Of a DNA stretch of 64,000 nt, positions 11,672 through 30,749 are shown piece after piece. Position 1 is the first letter of the stretch; each line of letters opens with the position of its first letter. Source of the stretch: a virus; IMG/VR virus record IMGVR_UViG_3300025600_000001, positions 32,001 to 96,000 of that record. One strand, 5' to 3'. The translations under genes were made by a program, and so were the position numbers. A model generated the notes under the pieces. The model was not told the origin of the DNA. It did no database searches and saw only the letters and a list, made by a program, of their open reading frames with translations.

Positions 11672-11841
11672 AAAGATATGTATTTGCTATAACGATTACA
11701 GGATTTGGAGAAACTCCTGATGAAGCATGGAAAGATGCTGTTGAAGCTACTAATCTTGAAGATGATCCTATACCTGAAGAGGATATATACGATGAGTATG
11801 AAATGGATGATGATGAAGAAGTAGAGGACTATAGGAATTAG
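11668..11841 (+). CDS. Small acidic protein (57 aa, not in ORF track)
   Basis: MKRYVFAITITGFGETPDEAWKDAVEA...DDDEEVEDYRN; ATGA overlap with the upstream ORF. Confidence 0.6.
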   Translation: MKRYVFAITITGFGETPDEAWKDAVEATNLEDDPIPEEDIYDEYEMDDDEEVEDYRN

Positions 11842-11920
11842 AGATCAACGACAATCTGAATTTGCAGATATGTGGATTCAAAGTGGAATGTTTGGTATAT
11901 TAAATCTATGTCCTAGTTGA
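11831..11920 (+). pseudogene. Stranded 5' relic of the SF2 helicase gene
   Basis: IGIRDQRQSEFADMWIQSGMFGILNLCPS-stop aligns with the helicase N-terminus IRTRRQREFANLWLESNMMNIMNLCPR; ATA stands where ATG is expected. Confidence 0.85.
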
Positions 11921-11947
11921 TAATTAAATTGTAATTTTGTATATTTG
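11916..11947 (+). promoter_or_regulatory. Bacteroidota-type promoter for the GIY-YIG cassette
   Basis: GTTG-N20-TATATTTG; the ATG at 11952 follows 4 nt later. Confidence 0.65.
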
Positions 11948-11951
11948 TACT

Positions 11952-12776
11952 ATGGAAATAAATAAAAATTTAATTAGAGTTTCTGGTATCTATAAGATAG
12001 AGAATATAGAAACAAAAGAATGTTATATAGGGAGTACCTTAAATATTTACAATAGAGCACATTCCTATAAATGCTTAGGAAAACAAAATAAAATTCATAG
12101 TACAAATTTACAAAAAGCAATAAATAACTATGGAATAGATATTTTTACTTTAGAAGTTTTAGAAAAAGTATATTTTGAAGAAGGTGTTTTAAAAAGTGAA
12201 AAATTGAAAATTCTTCACGATAAAGAACAAATATATTCCGATAATACTAATCTAAAATATAATAAAAGAAAAAATATTAATAAAAATACTGGAATAACTC
12301 TATCAAAAGAAACCAAAGAAAAAGTATCTACAACTCTTAAACGAATTTTTAAAGATGGTACAAGAATAATAGGAAGAATTTATTCTCATAATATAAAAGT
12401 ATCTATGTTTACAATTACTGGAACTTTTATTAAAGATTTTCCTGGATTAGCCCATTGTGCAGAATATTTAAATGTATCACCCTCATCAATCAATTATGCG
12501 TTAAAAAGCAAAAGACATGTTATAAAAAATCATATTATATTGAAACTTCAAGATAAAGATGAAATTAAAAATTTTATAAATATTCCATTAAATAAAAATA
12601 CTAATGGAAAAGCTATAAAAATTCTAGATACATTAGACGATAGTATACTGGAATTTATAAATTGTAAAACTTGTGCAAATATTATAAAATGTAAAGTTGA
12701 TACAATAGTTATTGGTTATAAAAAAAATAGATTAATTAAAAAAAGATATAAAGTAATAACCTATGGAAGATATTAG
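11952..12776 (+). CDS. GIY-YIG homing endonuclease with NUMOD1-like C-terminal repeats
   Basis: SGIYKIEN...CYIGS motif. Start moved from TTG 11937, which lies within the promoter, to ATG 11952. Confidence 0.9.
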   Translation: MEINKNLIRVSGIYKIENIETKECYIGSTLNIYNRAHSYKCLGKQNKIHSTNLQKAINNYGIDIFTLEVLEKVYFEEGVLKSEKLKILHDKEQIYSDNTNLKYNKRKNINKNTGITLSKETKEKVSTTLKRIFKDGTRIIGRIYSHNIKVSMFTITGTFIKDFPGLAHCAEYLNVSPSSINYALKSKRHVIKNHIILKLQDKDEIKNFINIPLNKNTNGKAIKILDTLDDSILEFINCKTCANIIKCKVDTIVIGYKKNRLIKKRYKVITYGRY

Positions 12777-13845
12777 AACGAGAAGACAACGTGAGTTTGC
12801 TAATTTATGGTTAGAGTCTAATATGATGAATATCATGAATTTGTGTCCCAGATTTGGAAAAATTAGAGTTGCTATAAATATCCTTGAACAGTTAAATCCT
12901 CATTGTACAGTATTAATTACTTATCCTGACAATAAAATAAGACATTCTTGGGAAGAGGATTTTGTAAAAAGAGGATATAATAATCCTAATATAACATTTA
13001 CTACACATCTTTCTCTCAAGAAATATGTAGATAAGATATTTGATATTATCATAATAGATGAAATACATCTAATTTCCACTGCACAAATGGAAATCTGCAA
13101 AGAACTTTTTAAAGAAAATCATGTAATGTTGGGTCTTACAGGTACATTAGCATCAGATACTAAAAATTGGTTACTATCTGCTTTGCATTTACCAGTAGTA
13201 GCAAATTACTCTATCAGTCAAGCTATATCTGAAGGAGTAATATCAGACTATGATATTACAGTTATTAAAGTTCCTTTGGATACAACAACTCTACAGGTTT
13301 ATAAGAAGCAACGTAAAACTGAGAAACAACAATTTGATATGCTCTCTTACGTTATTAATAAACAACAACAAGAAGGAAGAGATACAATGTTTATGCGTTT
13401 AGCTAGAATGAGAATTATTCAAAACAGTTTAAGTAAAATAAATAAAACTAAAGAAATACTAAAACAGTATGAAAATAATAGAATATTGGTCTTTTGTGGT
13501 ATTACAGCAGTTGCTGATAGTTTGGATATACCTTCTTTTCATAGTAAGTCAACCAATAAAATGACTTTTCAAAATTTTACAGAAGGCAATATTAAGCATT
13601 TGGCAGTTGTCAAAATTGGTGCTACAGGAATAACCTATAAACCTTTAAATCAGATAATTATAAATTATTTTGATAGTAATGCAGAAGATTTAGCACAAAA
13701 ATTGAACAGAGCTATGTCTTTTGAATACGATAATCCAGAGAAGAAGGCTCATATAACAATCATATGTTCAACAGAATCTGTCGAGCTTTTGTGGTTGAAG
13801 AAGGCTTTAGAATTTTTTAGTCCAGAAAAAATTAAATATCTATAA
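12763..13845 (+). CDS. Superfamily 2 (DExH) helicase
   Basis: Motif I CPRFGK, motif II DEIH, motif III GLTGT. Confidence 0.88.
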   Translation: MEDIRTRRQREFANLWLESNMMNIMNLCPRFGKIRVAINILEQLNPHCTVLITYPDNKIRHSWEEDFVKRGYNNPNITFTTHLSLKKYVDKIFDIIIIDEIHLISTAQMEICKELFKENHVMLGLTGTLASDTKNWLLSALHLPVVANYSISQAISEGVISDYDITVIKVPLDTTTLQVYKKQRKTEKQQFDMLSYVINKQQQEGRDTMFMRLARMRIIQNSLSKINKTKEILKQYENNRILVFCGITAVADSLDIPSFHSKSTNKMTFQNFTEGNIKHLAVVKIGATGITYKPLNQIIINYFDSNAEDLAQKLNRAMSFEYDNPEKKAHITIICSTESVELLWLKKALEFFSPEKIKYL

Positions 13846-13846
13846 T

Positions 13847-14011: not shown

Positions 14012-14047
14012 CTTTAAAACAGAAATAATAAAAAAAATTAGAAAATT

Positions 14048-14878
14048 ATGGAGAAAGAAGATGTAATATTACCAGATGAAATTAGTAAAGTAGTTATATC
14101 AGCACCAAGAGATCTTGCTATAATTGGAATTCCTAAAAGTGGAAAAGGAACTATATTAGGAAATTTTACATTAACTCATAATGCTCTTGTACTAGATCTT
14201 GAAAAAGGAGGATATGAATATATTCCTGCTAGAAAAATGTCTACTTATACAGGACAGGAAACAAGTCAATGGGAAAGTTTTCAAAACTTTATTAAATATC
14301 GTAATCTTTTATTGGAAAATAAAGGAAAATATGAATATCTAATTATAGATGGATTATCCGATCTTGATAGTTTATCCGACCTCGGTGGAACTCTGTCTTA
14401 TATGAATGGAATTATAGGTAAGAATTTTAATAGACCTAAATTAGCAAATGGATTATATGGTGAAAAATATAAACCGACTGATCCAGAGTTTAAATCAGTA
14501 TTAACATTACCTGATGGGGCTGGTTATATGAGTACTCGAAATTGGTTTCTTCAACAAATTGAAATGTTTAGACAAATAGCACCATATAGAATTTATGCTG
14601 CTCATATTGCTGATAAATATATTAAAGATAATGGAAAAGAAGAAGTGATAGGTAGTGAAATTTCTCTTACTGGAAAATTAAAAACAATTTTTGCAAGTAG
14701 AGTGACTGCTTTAGCAAAATTGGTAGTAGATGAGAATGAACGTTATCTTAATTTTGATGTTCAAAATGATAGTATTGTTGCAGGAAGTAGATCTCCTAAA
14801 TTGAAAGGAAAGATACTAATTTCAAGACAAGAATCAGATGGAACTATAATAACCTTTTGGGATAATATTTATGGATAA
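14048..14878 (+). CDS. AAA/P-loop ATPase (AAA_24, Sak4-like)
   Basis: GIPKSGKGT, LVLDLEKG, LIIDG, GAGY, AAH; lies next to an SSB-like gene. Confidence 0.8.
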   Translation: MEKEDVILPDEISKVVISAPRDLAIIGIPKSGKGTILGNFTLTHNALVLDLEKGGYEYIPARKMSTYTGQETSQWESFQNFIKYRNLLLENKGKYEYLIIDGLSDLDSLSDLGGTLSYMNGIIGKNFNRPKLANGLYGEKYKPTDPEFKSVLTLPDGAGYMSTRNWFLQQIEMFRQIAPYRIYAAHIADKYIKDNGKEEVIGSEISLTGKLKTIFASRVTALAKLVVDENERYLNFDVQNDSIVAGSRSPKLKGKILISRQESDGTIITFWDNIYG

Positions 14879-15530
14879 CACTTTTTGTATATACGTATTT
14901 TCTGATCAATGGGGTGTACCAAAATATGTTGGTAAAGCTAAAGATTTTGCAAAAAGAATGGATGAGCATCTAAATAGAGATAGATTTAGATATAGTTCTA
15001 CTTGGTTCTATAGATGGTTAAATAAACAAATTGCAAACGATATAGAATTCTTTATGGATATATTAGAGGAAGTTACTCAGGAAACTTGGATAGAAAGGGA
15101 AATCTATTGGATAAAACATATTAAAGATAATGGATACAGATTAACAAATATGACTAATGGTGGGGATGGCAACAATAATCAAATCCATACTAAAGAGAGT
15201 AGATTAAAAAGATCCAAAAGAATGATGGGACACGAGGTCTCTGAAGAAACAAGAAAACGTATATCAAAAGGTCTCACTGGTAAAGTGATATCTAAAGAAA
15301 CTAGAAAGAAGTTATCTAATCTTAATAAAGGAAAAATATGTTTAGAATCTACTAAACTAAAATTTTCAAAAGTAATAGATCAATATGATTTAGCTAAGAA
15401 TTTTATTCAAAGTTTTACTTCTCTAACTAATGCTGCAATCTTTTTAAATTGTAGAAAATCATCTTTGAGTAATGCTATGAAAAGAAAAATTAATGGTAGA
15501 TTTAAAAACTATTTATGGAAATATAAATAA
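14871..15530 (+). CDS. GIY-YIG homing endonuclease with NUMOD3/NUMOD1 motifs
   Basis: CIYVF...KYVG, EREIYWI, LTNMTNGGDG, SEETRKRIS repeats, QYDL. Confidence 0.88.
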   Translation: MDNTFCIYVFSDQWGVPKYVGKAKDFAKRMDEHLNRDRFRYSSTWFYRWLNKQIANDIEFFMDILEEVTQETWIEREIYWIKHIKDNGYRLTNMTNGGDGNNNQIHTKESRLKRSKRMMGHEVSEETRKRISKGLTGKVISKETRKKLSNLNKGKICLESTKLKFSKVIDQYDLAKNFIQSFTSLTNAAIFLNCRKSSLSNAMKRKINGRFKNYLWKYK

Positions 15531-16568: not shown

Positions 16569-17387
16569 ATGTATAACAAGAATAGAAAAGAGCAAGTTAA
16601 AAATCTTTGGGATACTGGATTAGGAGCTACAGAAATATCTAAATTTTTAAATATTTCAATAAGTAATGTTTCAACTTATTTAACACAATCCTTAGGATCA
16701 GGTAGAAAAGGAAGATTTATTTATAAAAGAAGAATATTTACGCTAAATGAATCTTTTTTTGAAAATATAGATACAGAAGCAAAAGCTTATTTTTTAGGAC
16801 TACTTGCTGCAGATGGTAATTTAAGTAGTTCTCAGAATTCAGTTAGAATAGGATTGCATGAAAAAGATAAAGAAATATTAGAGTGTTTTCGAGAAAATCT
16901 AAATTATACAAAACCTCTAAAATTTGTTAAAAAAGTTAAAGAACCTGGATGGAATAGAAGTGATCAGTATTTATTAGAAATAAGCTCAACTATTTTTAGG
17001 AAAAGTTTAGAGAAACATGGATTAACACCAAACAAATCTCTCACATTAGTTTTCCCAACAACTATTCCTTTAGAGTATCAACATGATTATATTAGAGGAT
17101 ATTTTGATGGTAATGGTTGTATTCATATAGACAAACGAGATCACGGTAGTATAATTATTGCTAGTAGTGAGATGTTTTCTAAAAGTCTTATTGAAGTATT
17201 ACAAACTTTTGGTATTAGATCAAGTACATCTAAACACTATAAAGCTAATTGTTTTTATACTCGTTCATTTGGATATGATAATGTAGAGAATTTTTATAAT
17301 TTCATGTATAAAGATTCTACTATTTTTCTTGATAGAAAAAAACAAATATTTGAAAATTGGATAAATAAAAGAAATAAGAAATTATGA
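16569..17387 (+). CDS. LAGLIDADG homing endonuclease with N-terminal HTH
   Basis: YFLGLLAADG and YIRGYFDGNG motifs; promoter-like TATCTTTA at 16546-16553. Confidence 0.9.
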   Translation: MYNKNRKEQVKNLWDTGLGATEISKFLNISISNVSTYLTQSLGSGRKGRFIYKRRIFTLNESFFENIDTEAKAYFLGLLAADGNLSSSQNSVRIGLHEKDKEILECFRENLNYTKPLKFVKKVKEPGWNRSDQYLLEISSTIFRKSLEKHGLTPNKSLTLVFPTTIPLEYQHDYIRGYFDGNGCIHIDKRDHGSIIIASSEMFSKSLIEVLQTFGIRSSTSKHYKANCFYTRSFGYDNVENFYNFMYKDSTIFLDRKKQIFENWINKRNKKL

Positions 17388-17800
17388 AATATTCAAAACT
17401 AATATTAACTACAGAATCTATAGAAAGTGTTATTGAGAAAATTAAACTAAATACACTATCCGCTTATCAATGGTTTCCTGTTAGAGGAAAAAATAAATGT
17501 TTCTATGAATTAGGAGGAAGGAATTATGAAAATACTCTTGAAATAAAAGCATATATTCCTAGTAGAGAAGATGATAAATATGTAGTTCATGCAAATGGGA
17601 TGATTAAATGTGAGTATTCTTTAACAGATTGGGGAGAAATAGAATTTCCTACTTTTTGTATAAAGTTTCCAAAAATTAAAAATATAGAAAGTATGATAAA
17701 TTTTCTAAAAACTACAGATTTTAAAAGTTATTACCCAAAAATAGAAGAAGAAAGAAGAAGATCACAAGAATATGAAACTATTTATATATGTAAATCATGA
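17384..17800 (+). CDS. Hypothetical protein
   Basis: 138 aa with ATGA overlaps. Confidence 0.6.
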   Translation: MKYSKLILTTESIESVIEKIKLNTLSAYQWFPVRGKNKCFYELGGRNYENTLEIKAYIPSREDDKYVVHANGMIKCEYSLTDWGEIEFPTFCIKFPKIKNIESMINFLKTTDFKSYYPKIEEERRRSQEYETIYICKS

Positions 17801-18183: not shown

Positions 18184-19187
18184 TAACAGGAACTAGAAAA
18201 ATTGAACTTACACCAGAGTCAGTTCTTAAAAAGATTTCAAGTTATGATATTTTTCGTAGATATATGCCTGATACATTCTGGAAGATCAATCAAGCTACTA
18301 TTTCTCCATTTAGGAAAGAAACTAATCCCTCCTTTCTGATAGGAAATAGAGGAGGTACGCTCACCTTCATAGATTTTACTGACACAGCTAAACGTGGTGA
18401 TTGTTTTACATTCATGAAACAATTATTTATGCTTACCATGGACGAAGCATTAACTAAGATTGATCAGGATTTTGGACTTGGAATTTCTCACAAAGGAACT
18501 AATATTGGTGAATACAAAAAAATAGTAGCAGAATATAAACAACCTGAGGAATTAGGTAAACGTTATGCACTTATTCAAGTAATCACTAGAAAGTTTACTA
18601 AAGAGGAATTAGACTATTGGGCCCAGTATTATCAAAACATTGATGATCTGAGAGATAATCACATTCATTCTATAAAATCTCTATTTCTAAATAAGAGTAG
18701 ATTTGCTTTAAAGGATGATGAACTTCGTTTTGGTTATCTTTATAATGGTCATTGGAAGATTTATAGGCCATATATAGAGAAAAGAACAAAATGGGTTCCA
18801 AATAATGTACCTATTACTGCTTTAGATGGTAAAGATGATATCCTAAATTGTAGAAGTACTGTAATGATTCAAAAATCTAAAAAAGATTATATGTTAATGA
18901 AAAAAGTATATCCTTATAATATTGCAGTACAAAATGAAGGACATGCTTGTTTCTCTGATGAGAATGTAGAATATATTAGAACTAATTCTACCAGACAGGT
19001 TTTATCATTTGATAGTGATGAACCTGGTGTAGCCAATTCACAACAGATTACTAAGATCTTTGGATTTGACTACTGTAATGTTCCTAGAATGTATCTACAG
19101 GAGAATATAAAAGATTGGGCAGACTTAGCAAAAGCTCATGGATTAGAAGTTATTAAAGAAATTTTAAAAACGAAAGAATTATTATAA
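18180..19187 (+). CDS. DNA primase (DnaG-like TOPRIM)
   Basis: SPFRKETNPSF N-terminal domain, KSKKD, FDSDEPG (DxD) and KDWAD motifs. Confidence 0.85.
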   Translation: MITGTRKIELTPESVLKKISSYDIFRRYMPDTFWKINQATISPFRKETNPSFLIGNRGGTLTFIDFTDTAKRGDCFTFMKQLFMLTMDEALTKIDQDFGLGISHKGTNIGEYKKIVAEYKQPEELGKRYALIQVITRKFTKEELDYWAQYYQNIDDLRDNHIHSIKSLFLNKSRFALKDDELRFGYLYNGHWKIYRPYIEKRTKWVPNNVPITALDGKDDILNCRSTVMIQKSKKDYMLMKKVYPYNIAVQNEGHACFSDENVEYIRTNSTRQVLSFDSDEPGVANSQQITKIFGFDYCNVPRMYLQENIKDWADLAKAHGLEVIKEILKTKELL

Positions 19188-20015: not shown

Positions 20016-20028
20016 AAATTAAATTAAA

Positions 20029-20118
20029 ATGTCAGACATTAAGACGTACAAAGTATCACAAGCAGCAATGCTAGCAGTGCTGCCACCAGAATCCACAAGA
20101 ACGTATAATTCTTCATAA
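20029..20118 (+). pseudogene. Stranded 5' relic of the DUF932-like gene
   Basis: MSDIKTYKVSQAAMLAVLPPESTRTYNSS-stop versus MKESYSVSKAMLISTPIPESTRTYKS. Confidence 0.88.
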
Positions 20119-20120
20119 AT

Positions 20121-20151
20121 TTTGAAATGTCATAGGAATTAGTTACATTTG
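20121..20151 (+). promoter_or_regulatory. Bacteroidota-type promoter for the GIY-YIG cassette
   Basis: TTTG-N19-TACATTTG; the ATG at 20156 follows 4 nt later. Confidence 0.75.
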
Positions 20152-20155
20152 GAAT

Positions 20156-21127
20156 ATGAAAAATATAACTATAAATTTTATATTAGCAAGAACTTCTGCT
20201 AATTATGAAGATATACATTGTACTGGTATATATAGAATATATCACATCATTAAACCATCTATTTTTTACATTGGAAGTGCTTCTTCTAATAAAAGATGGA
20301 GAGAGGGTTTTAAACAACGATGGGTAGAACATATCAAAGAACTTCGTAAAAACATTCATCATTCTCCATTCTTACAAAGAGTTATTAATTTATATGGAAT
20401 AGAAGGATTAAGATTTGAAATAATTGAAAAATGTGAATCTTCTATATGCATACGTAAAGAACAATTTTGGTTAGATTTTTATAAACCATTTAAAAATAAA
20501 GGTTATAATACTTGTAAAATTGCAGGAAGTTCTATGGGTTATAAATTTTCTGAAGATCAAATAAAAAATAGAAAAAAAATATTTCAATATGATTTAAAAG
20601 GTAAATTCATTGAAGAATATAAAAGTTTAACTGATGCAGCAAAACAAACAAATACTAGAATTAATGAAATCAAAGATTGTGCTAAAAAAAGAATACAATA
20701 TACGAAAGGACATATATGGAGATATGAAAAAGAAAGTGTAGATTCTATATTTCATATTAAGATTTTTAAGATAGCGTGCTACTTTGATGGACAATTTCAA
20801 TTTGTAGATTCTTTACAAAAAGTAGAAGAAAAAACAAAAGTCCATAAAAAGTTTATTTATAACTGTATTAATAAAAATCTAAATAAAACATCTAATAATT
20901 GGTTATTTAGAAAATACGATATTGAAAATTGTCCAGAAAAAATTGATTGTGTTACAGTATTAAGATATAAATATGAACTTATAGAAAATGAAAAATCTAT
21001 CATTTTTAATACGTTAATATTATTAACAAGTTATTTAAAAGTTCATAGAAAATATTTTGAAGAAAAAATGAAAGTAACAAATGAAATAGTTTTTAATAAT
21101 AAAATAATTAAAAAATTAATAAAATGA
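20156..21127 (+). CDS. GIY-YIG homing endonuclease with NUMOD1
   Basis: TGIYRIY...FYIGS, EQFWLD, YNTCKIAGS, QYDLKG. Confidence 0.9.
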   Translation: MKNITINFILARTSANYEDIHCTGIYRIYHIIKPSIFYIGSASSNKRWREGFKQRWVEHIKELRKNIHHSPFLQRVINLYGIEGLRFEIIEKCESSICIRKEQFWLDFYKPFKNKGYNTCKIAGSSMGYKFSEDQIKNRKKIFQYDLKGKFIEEYKSLTDAAKQTNTRINEIKDCAKKRIQYTKGHIWRYEKESVDSIFHIKIFKIACYFDGQFQFVDSLQKVEEKTKVHKKFIYNCINKNLNKTSNNWLFRKYDIENCPEKIDCVTVLRYKYELIENEKSIIFNTLILLTSYLKVHRKYFEEKMKVTNEIVFNNKIIKKLIK

Positions 21128-21999
21128 AAGAAAGTTATTCAGTTTCTAAAGCAATGTTAATAAGTACACCTATACCAGAGAGTACTCGTACTTATAAAAG
21201 TTTTTCTCACAAACAGTTAATAGATTTAACTCTTGAGGGTATTCACCATGCAGGATTTCAAGTGGGAAAAGAATTATATTCTTCTGCAAAAGATGGTCTT
21301 GTAGCTAATGGAAGATATACTATAGCAAATATAGCTGATTCAGAAATGCAATTACAAATTACATGGAGAAATAGTTATAATAAAAGTTTACCACTAACCT
21401 TTTCACTCGGTGCTATGGTGTTAGTATGTTCCAATGGAATGCAAAAATCTCAAGGAATGGGATCTTTTAAGAAAAAACATCAAGGACAAATTCAAAGTTT
21501 TACTCCACAAGCTATAGGCGAATACATCAAAGGAGCTGAAGAAGTATTTAAACAAATGCAAATAGAAAGAGAGCAAATGAAACAAGTCACACTCTCAAGA
21601 ACGCTGCAAGCAGAGATTATAGGAAAAATGTTTATAGAAGCAGAATTTATTAAGTCTACTCAATTGAATATTATCAAAAGAGAACTTGATAATCCTACAC
21701 ATGATTATGGAGATCCTAATAGTTTGTGGTCATTGTATAATTATACAACTTTTGCAATGCGTGAATTGCATCCATCTTTATATCTACAGGATCATATTGA
21801 TGCTCATTCATTCTTTGTCACTGAATCAGGAATCATAGTTAATACTCCTGAACCTATTACAATTCGTCCTGTAGAAGATAAGAGACAATTAAACTTGTTT
21901 GATGAACTTCTTAATCAAGAAACAGAAGAAGTCTTGGCTGAAGTGTATAATAGTGAAGAAGAAGAAGAAGAGGAAGAATGGGAACCAGAACAACTATAG
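21124..21999 (+). CDS. DUF932/DUF945-like protein
   Basis: WRNSYNKS...GAMVLVCSNG...KKKH and SLWSLYNYTT motifs; acidic tail. Confidence 0.75.
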   Translation: MKESYSVSKAMLISTPIPESTRTYKSFSHKQLIDLTLEGIHHAGFQVGKELYSSAKDGLVANGRYTIANIADSEMQLQITWRNSYNKSLPLTFSLGAMVLVCSNGMQKSQGMGSFKKKHQGQIQSFTPQAIGEYIKGAEEVFKQMQIEREQMKQVTLSRTLQAEIIGKMFIEAEFIKSTQLNIIKRELDNPTHDYGDPNSLWSLYNYTTFAMRELHPSLYLQDHIDAHSFFVTESGIIVNTPEPITIRPVEDKRQLNLFDELLNQETEEVLAEVYNSEEEEEEEEWEPEQL

Positions 22000-22220
22000 G
22001 TGCAAAACCTGCAATAGTAAAAGTTCCAGGAACTTTTATTAAGATTGGTGATTACAGAATAATAAAATCAAGTGTGAAGAGGTATCAACCAAGTAAAAAT
22101 GGATATATCAACATCTATTTTAACTCCTCAATAAATCATCCTGATTTTAAGAGTTTTCACTATACATCAACTAAGTTACAACAAGAAGTTTTAGACTATT
22201 TAGATTCAATTTATTTATGA
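21978..22220 (+). CDS. Hypothetical protein
   Basis: 80 aa; its stop overlaps the ATG of the UDG relic. Confidence 0.55.
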   Translation: MGTRTTIGAKPAIVKVPGTFIKIGDYRIIKSSVKRYQPSKNGYINIYFNSSINHPDFKSFHYTSTKLQQEVLDYLDSIYL

Positions 22221-22345
22221 ACAAAAGTAAAACAATACTATCAGAAGAGGCTTTTGAGCCTCTTTTTGGTAGTTGGTGGCCTAAGATTAACAAATTCTCT
22301 GTTATTTTATTTGTATATTCTACTTATTTAGTATATATTTGTTAG
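22217..22345 (+). pseudogene. Stranded 5' relic of the uracil-DNA glycosylase gene
   Basis: MNKSKTILSEEAFEPLFGSWWPKIN... versus MNNLDWKKFEPLFGTWALKIK. Similarity ends near 22290 and the frame runs on to a TAG in the promoter region. Confidence 0.85.
22310..22341 (+). promoter_or_regulatory. Bacteroidota-type promoter for the LAGLIDADG cassette
   Basis: TTTG-N20-TATATTTG. Confidence 0.75.
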
Positions 22346-22369
22346 ATTAATTTAATACAACATTACTAT

Positions 22370-23350
22370 ATGACATATTTTAAACTTACTCCAGAAATTC
22401 ATAAAAATATAGCAGATGAATATATTTCATCTATAACTACTCAACAAGATTTAGCAAAAAAATATAATGTTAGTACAGTTATGATTTCAAATATATTAAA
22501 AAAATTTAAAATTCCTACAGATCATCGAAGAGGATTTTATAATGTAGATATTAATTATTTTAAAATTATAGATACACCTAATAAATCATATTTTTTAGGT
22601 TTATTTCATGCCGATGGAAGTAACTCTGAGGAGCATAACTGTGTTAGAATTTCTTTACAGGAAAAGGATAAAGAAATATTAGAAAAATTAAAAAAAGATA
22701 TAAAATATTCAGGTCCTTTATATTATTTAAAAAAACAAGGAAATAGAAGTAATCAATTTTCATTAAATATTGTAGCAAAAGAATTATCACAAGATTTGGT
22801 AATTCTAGGTTATCCTAAGAATAAAACTTACAAAGTAGTATTTCCAGAATACTTAGAACAGTCATTAGTAAGACATTTTATTAGAGGATTGTTCGATGGA
22901 GATGGATGTATTCATGCTAAATATAAACATAGTTTAAGTATCGTTGGTACATGTAATACTTTGTTAGGAGTAAAAGATTATTTACAAGAAATATTAAATA
23001 TAAATTCTGTAATAGTAGAAAGTAAATCTAAAAATATATTTAGATTAAGTATATGTAAAAAGATAGATATATTCAATACATTATGTCATTTATATGAAAA
23101 TAGTGAATTGTATTTACAAAGAAAATATGACATCTTTCATCAAGTGTACATGATTCAGAAAGAACATTTATATTGGCAAATATACTGTAAAAATTTAAAA
23201 ACTAATGAAATTAATATTTTTAAAAATATGCAAGAAACTAAAGAATTTTTTGGATTAAAATCCTATGCAGCAATATCTTATTGTATCCATAAAAGTAAAA
23301 CTAAAATTTTTAGAAAAACGTATTATATAAATTTATTGAAAAATGAATAA
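22370..23350 (+). CDS. LAGLIDADG homing endonuclease with N-terminal HTH
   Basis: YFLGLFHADG and FIRGLFDGDG motifs. Confidence 0.9.
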   Translation: MTYFKLTPEIHKNIADEYISSITTQQDLAKKYNVSTVMISNILKKFKIPTDHRRGFYNVDINYFKIIDTPNKSYFLGLFHADGSNSEEHNCVRISLQEKDKEILEKLKKDIKYSGPLYYLKKQGNRSNQFSLNIVAKELSQDLVILGYPKNKTYKVVFPEYLEQSLVRHFIRGLFDGDGCIHAKYKHSLSIVGTCNTLLGVKDYLQEILNINSVIVESKSKNIFRLSICKKIDIFNTLCHLYENSELYLQRKYDIFHQVYMIQKEHLYWQIYCKNLKTNEINIFKNMQETKEFFGLKSYAAISYCIHKSKTKIFRKTYYINLLKNE

Positions 23351-24134
23351 TTTAGATTGGAAGAAATTCGAACCACTTTTTGGTACATGGGCTTTAAAAA
23401 TAAAGCCTTTTTTTGACTTAGGAGGTTTTGATAAAATATATGAGTTTCTTAAAAAAGAGTCAAAAAGAGGTAAAGAAATCGCACCTATGTCATCTCTTGT
23501 ATTTAGAGCATTTCGAGAGACAGACATAAATACTCTTAAAGTAGTAATTGTTGGTTTAGCACCATATCATACCTTTTATAATGGATCGTCTATTGCGGAT
23601 GGTTTGTGTATGAGTTGTTCTATTACTAGTAGATTACAACCTAGTCTTTCTAATTTCTATAATGCTATAGAACGAGAACTTTATAATGGACTTAATTTAA
23701 ATATGTATAAAAATCCAGATCTTACCTATTTAGCCAGAGACGGAATTCTTCTATTGAACTATGCTCTCACCACTAGTAAAAATAAACCAGGGGATCATTG
23801 TGTTCTTTGGGAACCTTTTATGAAATTTCTATTTGAACAGGTGTTAGATACTATTGGAGCTCCTGTTATTTTCTTAGGACGTGAAGCAGCCAAACTAGAG
23901 AGATATACAATGCCTTTTAATTGGATATTTAAGTTATCTCATCCTGCCTCAGCAAGTTATCAAGGTATCGAATGGGATTCTGAAGGAACATTTAAAACTA
24001 TAAATAAGATTTTATGGGAGCGAAATAAAGAAACGATAAATTGGTTACAATTAGATAGTATAAACGAAAAGGAGATAAAAAATGAAGACAAAGTTAAAAA
24101 ACCAGGAAAACCTAAATTTAGAAGTTCAAATTAA
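23343..24134 (+). CDS. ung: Uracil-DNA glycosylase (family 1-like)
   Basis: KVVIVGLAPY (GQDPY variant), ADGLCMS, PSL, GILLLNYALT, HPAS. The usual catalytic Asp is replaced. Confidence 0.8.
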   Translation: MNNLDWKKFEPLFGTWALKIKPFFDLGGFDKIYEFLKKESKRGKEIAPMSSLVFRAFRETDINTLKVVIVGLAPYHTFYNGSSIADGLCMSCSITSRLQPSLSNFYNAIERELYNGLNLNMYKNPDLTYLARDGILLLNYALTTSKNKPGDHCVLWEPFMKFLFEQVLDTIGAPVIFLGREAAKLERYTMPFNWIFKLSHPASASYQGIEWDSEGTFKTINKILWERNKETINWLQLDSINEKEIKNEDKVKKPGKPKFRSSN

Positions 24135-24146: not shown

Positions 24147-26453
24147 ATGATTTTAGAAAAACAAACAGATAATATTATACTAACAGAAGGAGATGTCTCA
24201 GAGAGTATAAATATGGAATTGGATTTGGATTCTGCTCAGATTTTGATGCAGATGTTAAGTAAAAATTTGTATTCTGATGCTATTGGTAGCACTGTTAGAG
24301 AAACCTGTAGTAATGCTTTAGATAGTCATCGAAAAGCAAATACAGATGATCCAATTATTGTTAGTTTTAAATCAAATAATGATAATACCTATTCGTTTTG
24401 TGTTCAAGATTTTGGTACTGGTCTGGATGCTGATGATGTAGAAAACATCATTAGCAAATATGGAAAATCTACTAAAAGATTAGAAGCTAACTCATTGGGT
24501 ATGATGGGATTGGGCTTTAAATCACCATTGGCTTATTCATCAAGTTTCACTTTTGTATGTCGTAAAGATGGTATGGAATGGACATATATGATGTATGAAG
24601 GAGAAGATAGTAATAAGATTGATTTGTTGTATTCTCAGAAGACAATCGAAAAGAATGGTGTAAAAGTTATTATTCCTGTAAAGTATTCAGATAAAAATGA
24701 ATTTCTTACTAAAATTAGGGAACAACTTGCATATTTTGAAAATGTATTCTTTGATACAGGTAATGTTAGTAATGATTTTATAATTCATCGTGCTGAACAT
24801 TATCAGATCTCTCCATTAGTTAATTCTAGTTTGATGCACATTTGTCTGGATAATGTCTATTATCCTATTGATTTTGAGAAATTAGGAATTCCTCCTATTC
24901 ATGTAGTTGTTGGTTTACGATTTGGTCTTAGTGATGGAATCTTTCCAACACCAAATAGAGAAGCAATAAGAATGACCCAAGAAGCTAAGAAGACTATTTT
25001 ATCTAAAATAGCTAAAGTTGCAGATGTTTTTATAACTATGTATAATAATACAATAGTTGCTACTTCTGACATACAAACTGTTTTTGAATATTATAAATCA
25101 CAAGACAGATTGGTAACAATTAGTGATAAAACCTATAATGTATTTCAGCTTAAGAACTATAGTAGTATAAAGATTACATCTCCTACATTAATAGGAGTTG
25201 AACTACTTAATTTAGAAGATTTGTATGAAGATAGAGAGAATATTCTTGGTGAATATCAAATCAGATATAATATCAAGAATAGAAAAATGAGTGAAGTAAA
25301 ATCTGGAGGGAGCAGAAATATACGACTTTATGATTTAAATAACACTCACTATTATCTCTATAATCAACCTATCTCTGGAAAGAAAAAAGAATATCTTAAA
25401 AGTATATGTAGTTATGGTGATAGTCATGTTTGCAAAAAAATAGATCCTTATAAATTAGGATTTAATTCTAGAAAAAGTTGGTCATCTACTAGTAGTTATT
25501 ACAGTATACTCAATCTTAAAAACTATAAAAGGACTGAATGGAGACAAAGAATTAAAGAGTTTCAATTTATTCAACAGAAATTTACAGAAAAGTTTATTGG
25601 TGTTGATAGTATGGAGATTCCTCAGAGTTACATAGATGCTAGAAAAAAAGAGAGAGTTTCGTCTTTAAATAATGGTAATGGAAGAAGAGTTAAACTTACA
25701 GGAGAACTTTTTGGTAAAACTGCTATGCCTCTTGAGAGATATGTAAGTGGTCAAAATTGTAAATTTGTTGCAGACACTTATATTCTTGCTGATATTCCTA
25801 AATATAAAGGATTGACTGTATACGACAGTTACGACAATCAACCTCTACTTGATAGTCTATATTACGTAACACGTAACTGTAGACATAAACTAAGAATTCT
25901 AAGTTTCTCAAATAGAGAGATGAAAGTTCTAAATGACATTAATATTCATAATCTAATATCTTATAGTAAATTTATGGAAGGAGAAAATAAACCATTTAAA
26001 AGATTAATTACAGCACATTTAATTAATACATTAATGTCTACGTACAATCATGTATTTAGTAAACGAGATTATCTAACTAGTATTTCACAACCTCTTTTAG
26101 ATAAACTTAATAAGTTATCTGACTATAAAAATGATTATTATTGTTATGCAGATAGTAATATCTATGTAAGTATGCTATCTGTAGCAGAAGAACACATGTT
26201 ATTTGATATGAAAATCTATTCTGATTATTTAGATATTAAGAATGTATTTTTGAAATTAACTTTTCTTAATACTGTAATGAAAACTATAAAAGATTATGAG
26301 AATGATCCGATGATTCCTATACTTGTAGATTTGTTTAAATATTATAGATATAGAATTGATTATAAGAACTATCATATCCCTCTTAATGAAATGATTGATT
26401 TCGATTCATTACTACTAACAGATGAAACTGTTAACGAATTAACTATTATTTAA
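24147..26453 (+). CDS. rIIA: rIIA-like protein (N-terminal GHKL/Hsp90-like ATPase)
   Basis: LYSD...VRETCSNALDSH, DFGTGL, GKSTK, GMMGLGFKSPLAY, TPNREAI. Confidence 0.88.
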   Translation: MILEKQTDNIILTEGDVSESINMELDLDSAQILMQMLSKNLYSDAIGSTVRETCSNALDSHRKANTDDPIIVSFKSNNDNTYSFCVQDFGTGLDADDVENIISKYGKSTKRLEANSLGMMGLGFKSPLAYSSSFTFVCRKDGMEWTYMMYEGEDSNKIDLLYSQKTIEKNGVKVIIPVKYSDKNEFLTKIREQLAYFENVFFDTGNVSNDFIIHRAEHYQISPLVNSSLMHICLDNVYYPIDFEKLGIPPIHVVVGLRFGLSDGIFPTPNREAIRMTQEAKKTILSKIAKVADVFITMYNNTIVATSDIQTVFEYYKSQDRLVTISDKTYNVFQLKNYSSIKITSPTLIGVELLNLEDLYEDRENILGEYQIRYNIKNRKMSEVKSGGSRNIRLYDLNNTHYYLYNQPISGKKKEYLKSICSYGDSHVCKKIDPYKLGFNSRKSWSSTSSYYSILNLKNYKRTEWRQRIKEFQFIQQKFTEKFIGVDSMEIPQSYIDARKKERVSSLNNGNGRRVKLTGELFGKTAMPLERYVSGQNCKFVADTYILADIPKYKGLTVYDSYDNQPLLDSLYYVTRNCRHKLRILSFSNREMKVLNDINIHNLISYSKFMEGENKPFKRLITAHLINTLMSTYNHVFSKRDYLTSISQPLLDKLNKLSDYKNDYYCYADSNIYVSMLSVAEEHMLFDMKIYSDYLDIKNVFLKLTFLNTVMKTIKDYENDPMIPILVDLFKYYRYRIDYKNYHIPLNEMIDFDSLLLTDETVNELTII

Positions 26454-26478: not shown

Positions 26479-27894
26479 ATGGATTTTTCATTAAATTGGT
26501 TTAAGAGTAAAAAGAAAGAAGAAAATGTACAGAAGATATATGTTCCTCAATCAACAACATCTTATGGTGTTGATCCTTTAGATCACAATGTAGAGTTTAT
26601 GCATGTGCCTTATAAGTCTATTAAGATGGTTAATGATGTAATTACTGTGGTGTTACTTGATGGAACAATTATTATCAAACCTTCTGCAGTAGAACTAGAT
26701 TTTATAAAAATTTCAAAAGCTACTACGATTGCTGAAATCTTAAACTTAGTAACTCTTCCCGAAATACTAGAAGAAAAACTTAAAGTTAAAGCTGAAGAAG
26801 AACGTAATATTGTTCTACATAAAGGAATCGAACTTCTAAAAGAAGTTAGTGATTTTAGAGTTGAAGATAATACTGTTTATATGGTAGGAACAAATAGAAG
26901 TGTTCCTGAACTCTTAGTTAATGAATTTATTGAAATTGTAGGAAGTTATGACTTTTCATCAATTTCTATGTCTATTAATGAGTATGTAGCAAAAAATGAA
27001 AAGTATCAAAGTTTAAAGAACTTCTTTCTTTGGGCATGTCTTAATCCAAGAGCTGAAGTAGCTAATGATCTATATGACTTTCTAAAAAGAAATAGTTTTA
27101 AGATCACTAAACAAGGATTCTTTGCAGCTCTTAGAAATGTTGTCACGCTTAATGATAATAGTGAAGAGTTTGATAACAATAGAGCACTTGTTGATTTTGT
27201 AAGTAATTCTTACAATAAGATTAAAGCTGTTTGGAAACAGAAACCTTCTAAATTTGATGTTTATAGAAATACTGATCATTTTGGAGAAAACTCTTTTTAT
27301 CTTTGGAAAATTGAAGAAACTCCAAATATTAAGAATAATGGAAACGAATGTATGGGTAATTTAGAAACTCTTTACAAACAGGATATGCCAGAGATGAAAG
27401 GTAATCGTTTCACTGATGATCACACAAAAACATTCGACATTCGTGTAGGAAAAGTTGTAAGTATGCCTATGAAAAAATGTAGTTGGTCGACAGCAGATTG
27501 CGATAAAGCAGGTTTACATTTTACTTCAGATCAGATTCACTATGTAGGATGTGGAGATACTTCTATGTTAGTACTAATCAATCCAATGAAGGTTGTAGGA
27601 ATAGGTACATCTAAAGGAAGATGTTATGAATATCTTCCAATTATGACAGTTCCTCGTGAAGAAGCAACACAACTTCTACATGATTTAGATTTTGATACTC
27701 TTGAATTAGATGAAGACTATGTCATTCATGAATTAGAAAGTCTTAGTGAAAAAGTCAAGAGTGGTTTCATAGCAGAAACTACTAAATATAGTTTCAATCT
27801 TCCAGCAACATCTACAGAAGAAATTGAGACTATTATAAAATCTTTATCATTAATGAAAGAACTCATTTCTAAACGAGTAAGTGTAATTAAATAA
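26479..27894 (+). CDS. rIIB: rIIB-like protein
   Basis: Follows rIIA; LNP...LYDFL, ITKQGFFAALR, FTDDHT...GKVVSM, CDKAGLH, GRCYEY. Confidence 0.85.
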   Translation: MDFSLNWFKSKKKEENVQKIYVPQSTTSYGVDPLDHNVEFMHVPYKSIKMVNDVITVVLLDGTIIIKPSAVELDFIKISKATTIAEILNLVTLPEILEEKLKVKAEEERNIVLHKGIELLKEVSDFRVEDNTVYMVGTNRSVPELLVNEFIEIVGSYDFSSISMSINEYVAKNEKYQSLKNFFLWACLNPRAEVANDLYDFLKRNSFKITKQGFFAALRNVVTLNDNSEEFDNNRALVDFVSNSYNKIKAVWKQKPSKFDVYRNTDHFGENSFYLWKIEETPNIKNNGNECMGNLETLYKQDMPEMKGNRFTDDHTKTFDIRVGKVVSMPMKKCSWSTADCDKAGLHFTSDQIHYVGCGDTSMLVLINPMKVVGIGTSKGRCYEYLPIMTVPREEATQLLHDLDFDTLELDEDYVIHELESLSEKVKSGFIAETTKYSFNLPATSTEEIETIIKSLSLMKELISKRVSVIK

Positions 27895-27899
27895 TTCAT

Positions 27900-27940: not shown

Positions 27941-27944
27941 ATTT

Positions 27945-28612: not shown

Positions 28613-28613
28613 A

Positions 28614-28778
28614 ATGAAACAGAAATTATTAAAATCGACAATTAGTGTACTAGAAGCCTTAAAAGAAGATGCGAATATGGCATTGAATGGAACTTGGGAT
28701 TGTACTGAACCAGGTTTCAGAGCCCAAATTAGAGCAATTAATGGAGTTTTATCAGAACTAAAAGCAAAATTAAAATGA
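28614..28778 (+). CDS. Small hypothetical protein (54 aa, not in ORF track)
   Basis: MKQKLLKSTISVLEALKEDANMALNGTWDC...KAKLK; its stop overlaps the relic ATG. Confidence 0.6.
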   Translation: MKQKLLKSTISVLEALKEDANMALNGTWDCTEPGFRAQIRAINGVLSELKAKLK

Positions 28779-28843
28779 TAGAAGGAATTAAAAAAATAAA
28801 TTCTGAAAGTGATTATCGTAAGATACAACTTGATTCAAGTTAA
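28775..28843 (+). pseudogene. Stranded 5' relic of the PD-(D/E)xK nuclease gene
   Basis: MIEGIKKINSESDYRKIQLDSS-stop versus MIKGINKNIDEKSYRTICLDSA (12/22 identical, ungapped). Confidence 0.88.
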
Positions 28844-28911
28844 AAAAGAGAAAAGTTATAGGATTATATATTTAATTTTTGTATATTTATATATAACTAA
28901 GTTATAATAAG

Positions 28912-29685
28912 ATGATTGGAATCTATAAAATAACAAGTCCTTCGAATAAAGTTTATATAGGACAAAGTTGGAATTTGATTAAAAGAGAGAAAGATTATAA
29001 GTCTTTAGCTAATATAATTAGACAAAGAAAAATATATAATTCTATGAAAAAATATGGAGTAGATAAACATATTTTTGAAATACTTCATATTCTTTCAGAT
29101 ACTACTATACAAAAAGAATTAGATTATTGGGAAATATATTATTGGAAGTATTTTATATCTCAAGGATTTGAAATGCTTAATATTAAAGAACCAGGAAAAG
29201 GAGGAAGATTAGATATTGAAACTAAAGAAAAGATATCTAAATCAAATAAGGGAAGAATTAGAAGTGAAGAAGTAATGAGTAAAATTAAGAATTTAGATAG
29301 ATATAATCTTCCTATTCTAATGTTAAATTTAAATGGAAAAATCATAAGAGAGTTTAGAAATATAAATTCATGTTCACGAGAATTACATGTTAGTTCTTCT
29401 AATATAAAATCAGTAATGAATGGTAAAACTAAAACATGTTTATCTCATATTTTTATAAAAAAAGTAGATTATGATGAATCTAAATTTACACAAATAATAG
29501 TTCCTGGTGGATGTACTGAGGTAAATCAATATGATTTAGATAATAATTTTATTAAAAGTTTTTTAAGTTTTAAAAATATTAGATTAGAATTAGAATTAAA
29601 AATAGGATGTGATCCTAATATTATAAGAGCTTGCAAATCTGAAAATAGAATAGCTTATGGTTTTAAATGGAAATATAAAAATTAA
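28912..29685 (+). CDS. GIY-YIG homing endonuclease with NUMOD motifs
   Basis: MIGIYKITSPSNKVYIGQS, ETKEKISKS, QYDL...AYGFKWKY; promoter-like TATATTTA at 28882-28889. Confidence 0.92.
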   Translation: MIGIYKITSPSNKVYIGQSWNLIKREKDYKSLANIIRQRKIYNSMKKYGVDKHIFEILHILSDTTIQKELDYWEIYYWKYFISQGFEMLNIKEPGKGGRLDIETKEKISKSNKGRIRSEEVMSKIKNLDRYNLPILMLNLNGKIIREFRNINSCSRELHVSSSNIKSVMNGKTKTCLSHIFIKKVDYDESKFTQIIVPGGCTEVNQYDLDNNFIKSFLSFKNIRLELELKIGCDPNIIRACKSENRIAYGFKWKYKN

Positions 29686-29690
29686 TAAAT

Positions 29691-30749
29691 ATGATTAAGG
29701 GAATAAATAAAAACATAGATGAAAAAAGTTATCGAACAATTTGTCTTGACAGTGCTAGTTCTTTAAAAGATTTTTCACTAGATAGAAAATTATATTTTAA
29801 ACGTTACGTTTTGTATGAGGTAGTAGAAGAGAAGTTTAATCAATCAATATTGATGGGAAATCTTGTTGATTGTATGTTATTAACGCCTAATTTATTTGAT
29901 AATAAATTTTATATGTCAGCATGTGCATCTTCGCCTTCTGGATTGATGTTAGAATTTGTAGAAGCTCTTTATAGAGCAACTAGAGATGCTATGGGAGAGG
30001 ACAAAATCTTAACAAAGAATTTTGAAGAACTGTCAAAGATTGCATATTTAGCCAGTGGCTTCAAAATTAAATATGAAGCAGTGATAGGTAAGTTTATGGA
30101 TTCTGACAATCAAATTTACTATGACGAATTAGTAAAGGTGAGAACTAATAATCTACTAGTAGTTACAATTGATCAGGTAAATAAAGCTGAACAAATTGTT
30201 GAAGAATTAAAAGTTAATTTTGTAACTAAAGAAATTCTTACACGTATAAATAGTCAAAGATGGACTGTTCTAGTACAACATCAGGTAGAAAACTATTTGG
30301 TTGATAATCATCCTTTTAAGAGTATGATGGATTTATGTATTATAGACCATCAAGAAAAGATTATTCAGATTTATGACTTGAAATGTGTATGGACCGTTGA
30401 AGGCTTTTTTTCTGACTACTATCTTTTTCGTAGAGCATACATTCAGGGATATTTATATTGGAGAGCTGCTATGTATATGAGTAATGATATTAATAGTGAA
30501 TTCTACGAATATACTGTTCTACCTCCAAGATTTATTGTATGTGATAGTATTAACTATTTTAATCCCTTAATATATACAATGTCAAATGATGATCTAAAGG
30601 ATGCGTATGAAGGATTTGAACACAAAGGACATAAATATCCTGGTGTAAAAGAGATAATTTTAAATCTTGATTGGAATATAAATAATAATATCTGGGGGAT
30701 GAGTAGAGAAAACTATATTAACAATGGTATAGTAAATATTAAAGATTAG
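29691..30749 (+). CDS. PD-(D/E)xK exonuclease-like protein
   Basis: SSLK, MGNLVDCML, KSMMD...IYDLK, YIQGYLY. Confidence 0.8.
   Translation: MIKGINKNIDEKSYRTICLDSASSLKDFSLDRKLYFKRYVLYEVVEEKFNQSILMGNLVDCMLLTPNLFDNKFYMSACASSPSGLMLEFVEALYRATRDAMGEDKILTKNFEELSKIAYLASGFKIKYEAVIGKFMDSDNQIYYDELVKVRTNNLLVVTIDQVNKAEQIVEELKVNFVTKEILTRINSQRWTVLVQHQVENYLVDNHPFKSMMDLCIIDHQEKIIQIYDLKCVWTVEGFFSDYYLFRRAYIQGYLYWRAAMYMSNDINSEFYEYTVLPPRFIVCDSINYFNPLIYTMSNDDLKDAYEGFEHKGHKYPGVKEIILNLDWNINNNIWGMSRENYINNGIVNIKD

Follow-up and report, generated by a model that had tools for sequence, protein, structure and literature searches.

Homing endonuclease genes between a native relic and a foreign copy of the gene start at four replication-module genes of a phage

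Free-standing homing endonuclease genes (HEGs) of phages cut HEG-less alleles near their own point of insertion, and repair of the break copies the HEG together with flanking donor DNA, as set out in the available part of a T4 review (PMC2988022). In the same text, T4 homing is possible with homology on one side of the break and an illegitimate join on the other, co-conversion and marker exclusion by free-standing HEGs are treated as established, and embedded promoters are said to favour HEG retention (PMC2988022). The accessible text on fungal mitochondrial mORFs gives as examples Allomyces atp6 and Glomus atp6, atp9, cox2 and nad3; a native gene end in Glomus is 91% identical in nucleotides to its sister species and 63.5% identical to the inserted copy (PMC3630166). 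Here we analyse a 64,000-nucleotide stretch of phage DNA (bases 32001-96000 of the 117,568-bp IMG/VR virus record IMGVR_UViG_3300025600_000001, hereafter the window) in which four genes, for an SF2 helicase, a DUF932 protein, a UDG and a PD-(D/E)xK-like nuclease, each follow a free-standing HEG and a relic of a gene start. Like the mORFs, as far as these are covered by the text cited, the four layouts combine an endonuclease open reading frame (ORF), a foreign gene end and a displaced native end (PMC3630166).

Four layouts of relic, endonuclease gene and complete gene

The original prediction, made from the letters of the window, described the order relic, spacer, free-standing HEG and complete gene at four places, and a check of ORFs and sequence found all four where it had placed them. 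The relic is 22-29 codons long at every gene. Between its stop and the HEG start lie 31 nt (helicase), 37 nt (DUF932), 24 nt (UDG) or 68 nt (nuclease). The HEG stop overlaps the start of the complete gene by 14 nt at the helicase, 4 nt at DUF932 and 8 nt at UDG, and the nuclease-site HEG ends 5 nt before its gene, again as predicted; the ATGA overlap with the upstream gene is likewise present for the UDG and nuclease relics. Below, the complete downstream copy is called resident, L-numbers denote fetched loci, including metagenome contigs, and P-numbers denote homologous proteins. The features are as follows.

11831..11920 (homologous part 11837-11914), + strand: helicase relic, recognised by protein similarity to the resident and to relatives
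11936..11945, + strand: TTTGTATATT motif in the relic-HEG spacer at the helicase, proposed promoter-like; one of 6 copies in the window
11952..12776, + strand: GIY-YIG/NUMOD1 free-standing HEG of the helicase site (Pfam)
12763..13845, + strand: complete SF2 helicase gene, a mosaic (Pfam, homologue identities)
20016..20118 (ORF 20029-20118; native-derived to 20108), + strand: DUF932 relic (nucleotide identity to L075/L076)
20109..20155, + strand: leader of the DUF932 cassette, conserved in the cassettes of L063 and L124
20156..21127, + strand: DUF932-site HEG, GIY-YIG family with NUMOD1 (Pfam NUMOD1, phmmer, homologues)
21124-21999, + strand: complete DUF932 gene, with ATGA overlap with the HEG
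21124..21800, + strand: donor-derived 5' part of the resident DUF932 gene, ~225 codons (low identity to L075/L076)
21808..21999, + strand: native 3' part of DUF932 (88-95% nucleotide identity to L075/L076)
22217..22345, + strand: UDG relic ORF, UDG-like to ~22297, the rest being read-through cassette sequence (relatives' N-termini)
22310..22319, + strand: TTTGTATATT motif in the UDG spacer (motif search)
22370..23350, + strand: LAGLIDADG free-standing HEG of the UDG site (Pfam LAGLIDADG_3)
23343..24134, + strand: complete UDG gene, a chimera, foreign to ~23800 or ~codon 155 (Pfam UDG 37 bits, nucleotide identity)
28775..28843, + strand: nuclease relic ORF, 22 codons, ending at the conserved LDSS|SSLKDF motif; 21 of 22 residues identical to the N-terminus of P0122
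28878..28887, + strand: TTTGTATATT motif in the nuclease spacer (motif search)
28912..29685, + strand: GIY-YIG-type HEG with NUMOD1, nuclease site (Pfam, similarity to the helicase-site HEG)
29691..30749, + strand: complete PD-(D/E)xK-like nuclease gene, a chimera (comparison with P0122 and P0133)

Pfam backs the predicted gene names in most respects; the nuclease has no Pfam match of its own, its crAss-like phage homologue being annotated as a PD-(D/E)XK exonuclease, and the DUF932-site HEG matches NUMOD1 only. Three GIY-YIG enzymes and one LAGLIDADG enzyme had been counted, a count that stands, with GIY-YIG firm for the helicase site and assigned through relatives for the two others. The helicase-site HEG (11952-12776) scores 24 bits against GIY-YIG (cut-off 22.6) and 21.8 bits against NUMOD1 (cut-off 22.8). 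The DUF932-site HEG (20156-21127) scores 34.7 bits against NUMOD1 and has no match to Pfam GIY-YIG; phmmer matches it to other GIY-YIG HEGs, and its 50%-identical homologue in L063 scores 29.8 bits against the Pfam GIY-YIG model. The nuclease-site HEG (28912-29685) reaches 32.2 bits for NUMOD1 and 17.3 bits, below the cut-off, for GIY-YIG, and matches the GIY-YIG HEG of the helicase site at E 2e-12. At the UDG site (22370-23350), two stretches match LAGLIDADG_3 with 48.8 bits. The six HEGs of the region are mutually 20-36% identical, which marks them as separate arrivals and not as one HEG spreading within the genome. A search of viral contigs yielded no relatives of the UDG, of its LAGLIDADG HEG or of the HEG at the helicase site.

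HEGs often reside in group I introns, and in two of the relics the start codon is still coupled to the gene upstream, so the layouts might be taken for split or intron-containing genes in which the relic is a first exon, spliced or otherwise joined (intein, bypass) to the downstream ORF. The original prediction saw no room for an intron, and a comparison of window 9000-33000 with Rfam at E up to 1 detected none, one weak sRNA match apart. The hallmarks of a group I intron are missing: there is no ribozyme core match, the spacers measure 24-68 nt, and the gene begins directly at the HEG stop. The HEGs are separate ORFs with their own start and stop, adjoining the target and outside any detected intron or intein. 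The HEG-to-gene junctions leave the downstream ORFs full-length, collinear with complete homologues from residue 1 (DUF932, nuclease); these ORFs hold a full N-terminus, and a join to the relic would duplicate the motif. An ATG is missing from the helicase relic, and the empty alleles described below are continuous genes. We regard split genes as highly improbable.

The arrangement is rare within the genome. In a scan of the whole genome, the first 50 residues of each of 154 ORFs of at least 60 aa, on both strands, were compared with the ORF's own 2.5 kb upstream (E up to 0.01), a design blind to relics shorter than ~15 codons. Matches were obtained for 7 of the 154 ORFs. Four are the present layouts (E 6e-10, 8e-6, 8e-5 and 3e-4), and the other three are tandem paralogues with no HEG between the copies; a HEG stands between relic and gene in all four layouts and nowhere else. 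Reversed queries gave a best E of 0.005, and shuffled queries gave one match at 3e-5 among 154, so the weakest relic E-values (UDG 8e-5, nuclease 3e-4) are not decisive by themselves. Homologues back both of these relics, with 21 of 22 residues identical to the N-terminus of P0122 for the nuclease and 27 of 27 found in L076 for UDG. On the + strand of loci L001-L046 and L048-L053, the relic scan produced 6 rows that were weak or deviated from the pattern.

Native relics and foreign 5' parts

The DUF932 site provides an empty allele. In homologue P0006, the N-terminus resembles the relic, the C-terminus is nearly the same as in the window gene and the middle is from another clade. Its DNA is represented by metagenome contigs L075 and L076, whose flanks are 83-89% identical in nucleotides to the window; in both, the DUF932 gene is uninterrupted and the HEG is absent at the site. 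Over 93 nt (80 nt of gene plus a 13-nt leader), the relic is 95.7% identical to the intact 5' end in L075 and 90.3% identical to that in L076, and the relic protein shares 25/29 and 24/29 residues, respectively, with the intact N-termini. The window leaves the L075/L076 alignment right after ...ACGTATAA (window 20108).

Beyond this point, the resident DUF932 gene is 43-78% identical in nucleotides to L075 and L076 up to ~21800 and 88-95% identical thereafter, except for a variable acidic tail. The proteins show the same step: 136/225 and then 60/66 residues are identical to L076, and 184/225 and then 33/66 to P0002. The step in identity delimits an imported block from window 20109 to ~21800 that contains the leader, the HEG and ~225 codons of foreign DUF932. 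The native and resident versions of the site itself differ at 21 of 45 nt and at only 3 of 15 aa. These closest relatives bear out the expectation of the original prediction that HEG-less genes resemble the relic and not the downstream N-terminus. Its picture of the empty allele, the relic joined directly to the present downstream gene, did not survive, as L075 and L076 carry the relic sequence, then native sequence that has been lost from the window, and then the remainder of the gene.

The surroundings of the DUF932 relic vary among these genomes. A 63-aa ORF directly upstream of it (window 19824-20015) occurs in the window and has no counterpart in L075 or L076. L075 lacks the 133-aa gene at 19187-19588 and has a 53-aa ORF in its place, and a minor strain in sequencing runs X1 and X2 shows the same skip, from 19185 to 19585.

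At the nuclease and helicase sites, the comparison draws on relatives' proteins alone. The nuclease relic is identical at 21/22 residues to the N-terminus of P0122, the closest homologue (87% overall), to which the resident copy is identical at 11/22. Along the resident nuclease, 43/72 residues match P0122 in positions 1-72 and 263/280 thereafter; identity to P0133 shows the opposite trend, 50/72 and then 180/280. On these protein identities, codons 1-~72 are foreign (P0133-like) and codons ~73-352 native (P0122-like).

In L082, L115 and L118, the N-terminus of UDG shows 55-71% identity to the UDG relic. The L076 contig, before it ends, has the relic and the adjoining 25 nt without a difference (106/106 nt). 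The resident UDG is 45-73% identical in nucleotides to L075 before ~23800 and 83-97% after it; against L077 and L078, in which no HEG precedes UDG, it is 34-70% identical and then 82-90%, which gives a foreign tract of ~155 codons. A strain joint from 22221 to 23808 coincides with the UDG boundaries, a weak hint (one contig, depth 10.5, side 30). With no relative above 55% identity, the search of representatives for UDG did not help to locate the breakpoint, and degenerate patterns for the UDG and helicase relic peptides gave 0 matches each against genome contigs. Since the DUF932 site of L076 is empty and its UDG relic is shared with the window, the UDG invasion in this lineage is older than the DUF932 one, or at least independent of it.

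The UDG start also bears other endonucleases. In L075, a different GIY-type HEG with NUMOD3 (L075:2701-3486) overlaps the UDG start (3465-4265), with a hairpin just upstream, and this different occupant suggests that the UDG start is a repeated landing place for unrelated HEGs. In the predicted protein P0385 (524 aa), a cluster representative, a GIY-YIG domain (residues 9-72) is followed by a UDG domain of this phage type (335-504), as if an upstream HEG had been read through into UDG or gene calling had fused the two.

The helicase relic has ATA at 11831, where relatives start with M-x-[IL]-R-D, and breaks off immediately ahead of the conserved RFGKI motif, with TGA TAA next. Over 26 aa it is 58% identical to resident residues 4-29 (E 6e-10) and 69-73% identical to relatives' N-termini. 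In the five homologues nearest to the resident in residues 124-228 (76-82%), 17-20 of 26 positions agree with the relic and 11-14 of 26 with the resident N-terminus. The unusual WLES and IM-LCP residues of the resident recur in P0243, its nearest homologue in residues 30-110 (81%). Identities in the two helicase segments are negatively correlated (Spearman -0.49, p 1e-8, 119 homologues). This weaker evidence suggests that resident residues 1-~110 group with a P0243-like clade and residues ~124-228 with the relic-like P0242 group.

The relic is therefore the recipient's old gene start, as originally proposed, at the DNA level for DUF932 and at the protein level for the nuclease, and the helicase and UDG relics are consistent with this. 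The comparisons at all four genes also uphold the foreign origin of the 5' part of the resident gene. The proposed replacement N-terminus holds in that a foreign 5' end was imported, and fails as a fixed unit, since the imported tract varies from ~72 (nuclease) through 110-124 (helicase) and 155 (UDG) to 225 codons (DUF932), with sharp breakpoints at DUF932, UDG and the nuclease. Such variable tract length is what co-conversion during double-strand-break repair gives.

The same gene order would be predicted by a tandem duplication of the 5' end in place, with a HEG inserted between the copies and the copies then drifting apart. Such a duplicate would not account for a relic 90-96% identical to the relatives' working gene beside a resident copy from another clade, or for a foreign tract that extends far past the duplicated part, and it would require four events with four unrelated HEGs. 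In the four aligned pairs, relic and resident copy share 49-59% of nucleotides and 50-58% of amino acids. Synonymous sites are saturated (pS 0.83, 54 sites) and yet the frames are open, with pN 0.37 (222 sites), a value biased downward by the finding of relic segments through protein similarity. Saturated pS with lower pN indicates that relic and resident diverged as working genes in separate lineages and did not decay in place. Duplication in place has, in our judgement, next to no chance of being correct.

An assembly artefact, in which two co-assembled strains had one's gene start stitched before the other's HEG allele, would find some encouragement in the sequencing runs. A related strain is present at ~3% of the depth in X1 and X2, and the Logan unitigs of both runs break at 21829-21849, the DUF932 recombination boundary, where the minor strain merges with the window sequence. 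Against this, each relic-HEG-gene stretch lies in a single Logan contig with 0 differences at a depth of ~270-600 in the two runs, and the independent records L076, L063 and L123/L124 show the same architecture. A clean HEG-less form of this strain was absent from the runs, X3 (share 0.09) containing only scattered pieces of relatives. Most of the strain joints have short sides (21-30 nt) at 80% likeness and were left out of account. We consider an artefact the least probable of all the explanations.

A shared junction and the origin of the layouts

Recurrence was examined in loci L054-L120 on both strands (677,524 nt) and in L121-L131 on the + strand. The mobile cassette of the original prediction does recur at the same junction in other phage lineages: the DUF932 architecture is found in L063 and in L124, together with L123, a shorter record with the same ORFs. 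Relative to the DUF932-site HEG of the window, the cassette HEGs are 50% (L063, 131/261) and 55% (L124) identical in amino acids. The three DUF932 relics are unrelated in sequence (window vs L063 42% nt), and all end at TATAA plus 0-4 native nt; from TATAA on, a leader of ~45 nt and the HEG are clearly homologous. In the three phages, the join point agrees to within ~12 nt on the side of the donor and to within 4 nt on that of the relic. Unrelated relics at the same junction imply that one cassette family entered three native alleles at the same point. Sliding identity among the cassette-linked DUF932 genes of the window, L063 and L124 showed no clear breakpoint.

The junctions fall at the first well-conserved motifs of the proteins (TRTYK, LDSS|SSLKDF and GILNLCP|RFGKI), and in conservation the ten residues past the junction rank between the 74th and 95th percentiles. 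Close to the junction, residues that are rare at conserved positions occur in the resident copies, G to N and L to M in the helicase and S to A in the nuclease, each found in less than a tenth of homologues. The insertions are polymorphic for presence, the DUF932-site HEG being absent in L075/L076 and any HEG before UDG being absent in L077/L078.

We consider it very probable that each layout is the footprint of an intronless homing event. In the donor phage, a free-standing HEG would lie directly upstream of its replication gene. On co-infection, the enzyme would cut the HEG-less allele at the first motif of strong conservation, which lies 65-85 nt from the start of the coding sequence. Repair from the donor would proceed on the right side by homology within the gene body, and the HEG would be copied with the donor's 5' gene part up to a crossover 72 to ~225 codons in. 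The left join would form at the break because donor and recipient share little or nothing upstream, where the small genes vary from phage to phage; a dead stub of the recipient's gene, its start codon and first 22-29 codons, would stay behind. The gene would be restored through its replaced front part without splicing. With about half of its nucleotides changed relative to the native site and the protein motif kept, the resident copy would probably be protected from the enzyme.

How the left join arises bears on what the relic is. The relics may be incidental scars, each made afresh by one-sided illegitimate repair and having no role as homology arm or half-site. One-sided homing with illegitimate joins is known in T4, according to the available part of the review (PMC2988022), the regions upstream of the target genes vary among relatives, and a relic is missing at many HEGs of this genome and of relatives. 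Illegitimate joins made independently should be scattered, and three unrelated relics join the cassette family at the same point. We therefore find incidental scars doubtful, though worth keeping in view. The same donor-side join in three phages tips our judgement slightly towards donors that already carried a relic end, the left half of the target, which would then travel with the cassette and provide short left homology.

Taken furthest, the intronless homing reading would make these cassettes a distinct self-perpetuating phage element. Such an element would enter a target motif in the manner of an intron, heal the gene with a replacement 5' end, use the relic as left homology and be barred from simple deletion; it would have been adopted convergently by GIY-YIG and LAGLIDADG enzymes and be an overlooked driver of mosaic 5' ends. 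A relic end serving as left homology would explain the junction reproduced behind unrelated relics, and deletion would be barred because an essential gene would depend on the cassette for its start and probably also for its expression signals. We advance this proposal tentatively, rating it a little short of even. The original prediction's view that the cassette is hard to lose is plausible on the sequence comparison, as relic and resident share too little identity for precise excision.

Several observations weigh against homing events of this kind or blur their reconstruction. No donor genome was found, and microhomology at the left join is therefore not visible. The helicase breakpoint is blurred (codons 110-124) because there is no close native relative (best 68%), and no UDG relative was seen that pairs a relic-type N-terminus with a body like that of the window. 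Over 33 positions at which relic and resident differ, the relic is no nearer to the consensus of homologues (119 per family), with 16 positions favouring the relic, 16 the resident and 1 tied. Runs X1 and X2 are perhaps from the source sample and hence not independent of the assembly. The nuclease-site HEG has relatives in L121 and L122 whose surroundings are unrelated and contain no relic, and relics were also not detected at five GIY-YIG HEGs of three complete relatives (359.6 kb) or at the L075 HEG of the UDG site. The scan likewise detected no relic for four further HEG-like ORFs of this genome, at window 14871-15530 and 16569-17387 and at genome 17112-17966 (-) and 29904-30875 (+). The two in the window are:

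14871..15530, + strand: GIY-YIG HEG without detectable relic, for comparison (Pfam, relic scan)
16569..17387, + strand: LAGLIDADG HEG without detectable relic, for comparison; its stop overlaps the start of ORF 17384-17800

Relic formation is thus not obligatory for HEGs. The two ORFs outside the window, genome 17112-17966 (-) and 29904-30875 (+), are GIY-YIG-like and LAGLIDADG-like by phmmer, and the genome has at least eight HEG-like ORFs in total.

The promoter-like element of the original prediction would correspond to the motif TTTGTATATT, with 6 copies in the window against ~1 expected. It lies between relic and HEG at the helicase, UDG and nuclease and is missing from the DUF932 cassette; a promoter in the spacer is suggested by this sharing in three of four cases. 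A + strand ORF begins 6-50 nt downstream of four of the six copies, and for three of these it is a relic-linked HEG. The fourth, at 34312-34321, is 24 nt upstream of a + strand 166-aa ORF (34345-34845), which has a weak RepL match (19.4 bits, below the cut-off), and shares a 16-nt context with the helicase-site copy. The motif may be a general promoter-like element of the phage rather than specific to the cassettes. A sigma-70 scan was uninformative (131 sites vs 137 expected), and a terminator scan found 4 against 3.4 expected.

Genomic setting and comparison with known systems

The 117,568-bp record has direct terminal repeats and a G+C content of ~28%. ORFs and Pfam matches outline a + strand replication module at window 10-32 kb, with genes for a DnaB-like helicase, the SF2 helicase, an AAA_24 ATPase, DUF932, UDG, a rIIA-like 768-aa protein and the PD-(D/E)xK-like nuclease. 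A 335-aa protein of the module, to which Pfam and family searches gave no name, we take from its position alone to be a primase. The 768-aa HATPase_c protein (24147-26453) is 23-31% identical to the rIIA of many phages over its first 320-440 residues, and the next ORF, 26479-27894, may be a candidate rIIB partner. Among 50,697 deposited phage records, no near DNA relative of window 10000-32000 was found; the sole match is 185 nt at 77% identity between window 19362-19546, within ORF 19187-19588, and gp95 of Sphingomonas phage PAU, annotated as a phosphoheptose isomerase. The crAss-like phage cr111_1 is the only named relative of the nuclease, at 26% aa identity, and "Crassvirales" is accordingly a loose label for this phage.

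Repeats of other kinds occur elsewhere in the window. A 71-aa ORF (8333-8548) has a paralogue ~1.5 kb upstream at 6716-6886 (38% over 58 aa, E 1e-6). On the - strand, the N-terminal modules of two ORFs are repeated just upstream (46918-48549 with 48654-48770, and 38698-39471 with 40914-41051), and one of the two modules has a CP..L.S.CV.YEG.NL-type motif that is repeated also in relatives G001 and G004. These - strand repeats look like tail-fibre-like tandem paralogues rather than HEG relics.

If the homing reading is right, the layouts would represent a third way for a HEG to live in an essential gene, besides introns or inteins and genes in pieces, with an empty site in hand. A short upstream ORF resembling the N-terminus of the gene behind a HEG offers a signature for uncultured phages, useful for mapping HEG target sites and recent horizontal exchange, the relic end marking the presumed cut to within a few nt. 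The 5' parts of phage replication genes can have a separate history, here over the first 72-225 codons. This has consequences for phylogeny and for gene calling, in which relic ORFs are annotated as hypothetical proteins. We found no description of the 5' relic layout in phages in the full-text literature, in which most subscription journals and supplements lie outside the coverage; the texts covered, in part, include PMC10448857, PMC2988022, PMC8351571, PMC12386605, PMC12724721 and PMC5871332.

The closest phage counterparts are the SegF, SegG, SegE and MobE systems of T-even phages, which in the available part of the review have, as here, a free-standing HEG, GIY-YIG or other, beside its target, alleles with and without the HEG, and chimeric genes formed by co-conversion (PMC2988022). 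T-even HEGs are also woven into the expression of the neighbouring essential gene (PMC2988022). In the T4 cases described there, the recipient segment is replaced cleanly with no upstream stub (PMC2988022), whereas here the left join falls within the coding sequence and a duplicate of 22-29 codons is present in 4/4. Experimental one-sided homing resembles the present case in its one-sided homology, with the other join formed at or near the break by microhomology; as the same text presents it, that was an intron system with scattered ectopic joins (PMC2988022), whereas the present case is natural and intron-less with a reproducible junction. Genes in pieces (Aeh1 nrdA with mobE; T4 39/60 with mobA) share with these layouts an intronless HEG in a conserved replication gene (PMC2988022). 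Those genes, as covered there, are split into two polypeptides that reassemble (PMC2988022), whereas here the gene behind the HEG is complete and the piece before it superfluous.

The mORFs of fungal mitochondria, as here, use both LAGLIDADG and GIY-YIG enzymes, according to the accessible text (PMC3630166). The phage relics repeat the Glomus pattern of a native end near to its relatives and distant from the inserted copy. In the mORFs it describes, the 3' end of the gene is replaced, often in frame, and the relic lies downstream, in an organelle (PMC3630166). In the phage, by contrast, the replacement concerns the 5' end with its start codon, and both the relic and the HEG, an ORF of its own, stand upstream, so that the likeness is one of working and not of membership. 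The arrangement would thus work like intronless homing of the SegF/SegG type combined with one-sided repair, and would form a mirror image of the fungal mORFs, a symmetry suggesting a general solution reached independently by selfish endonucleases.

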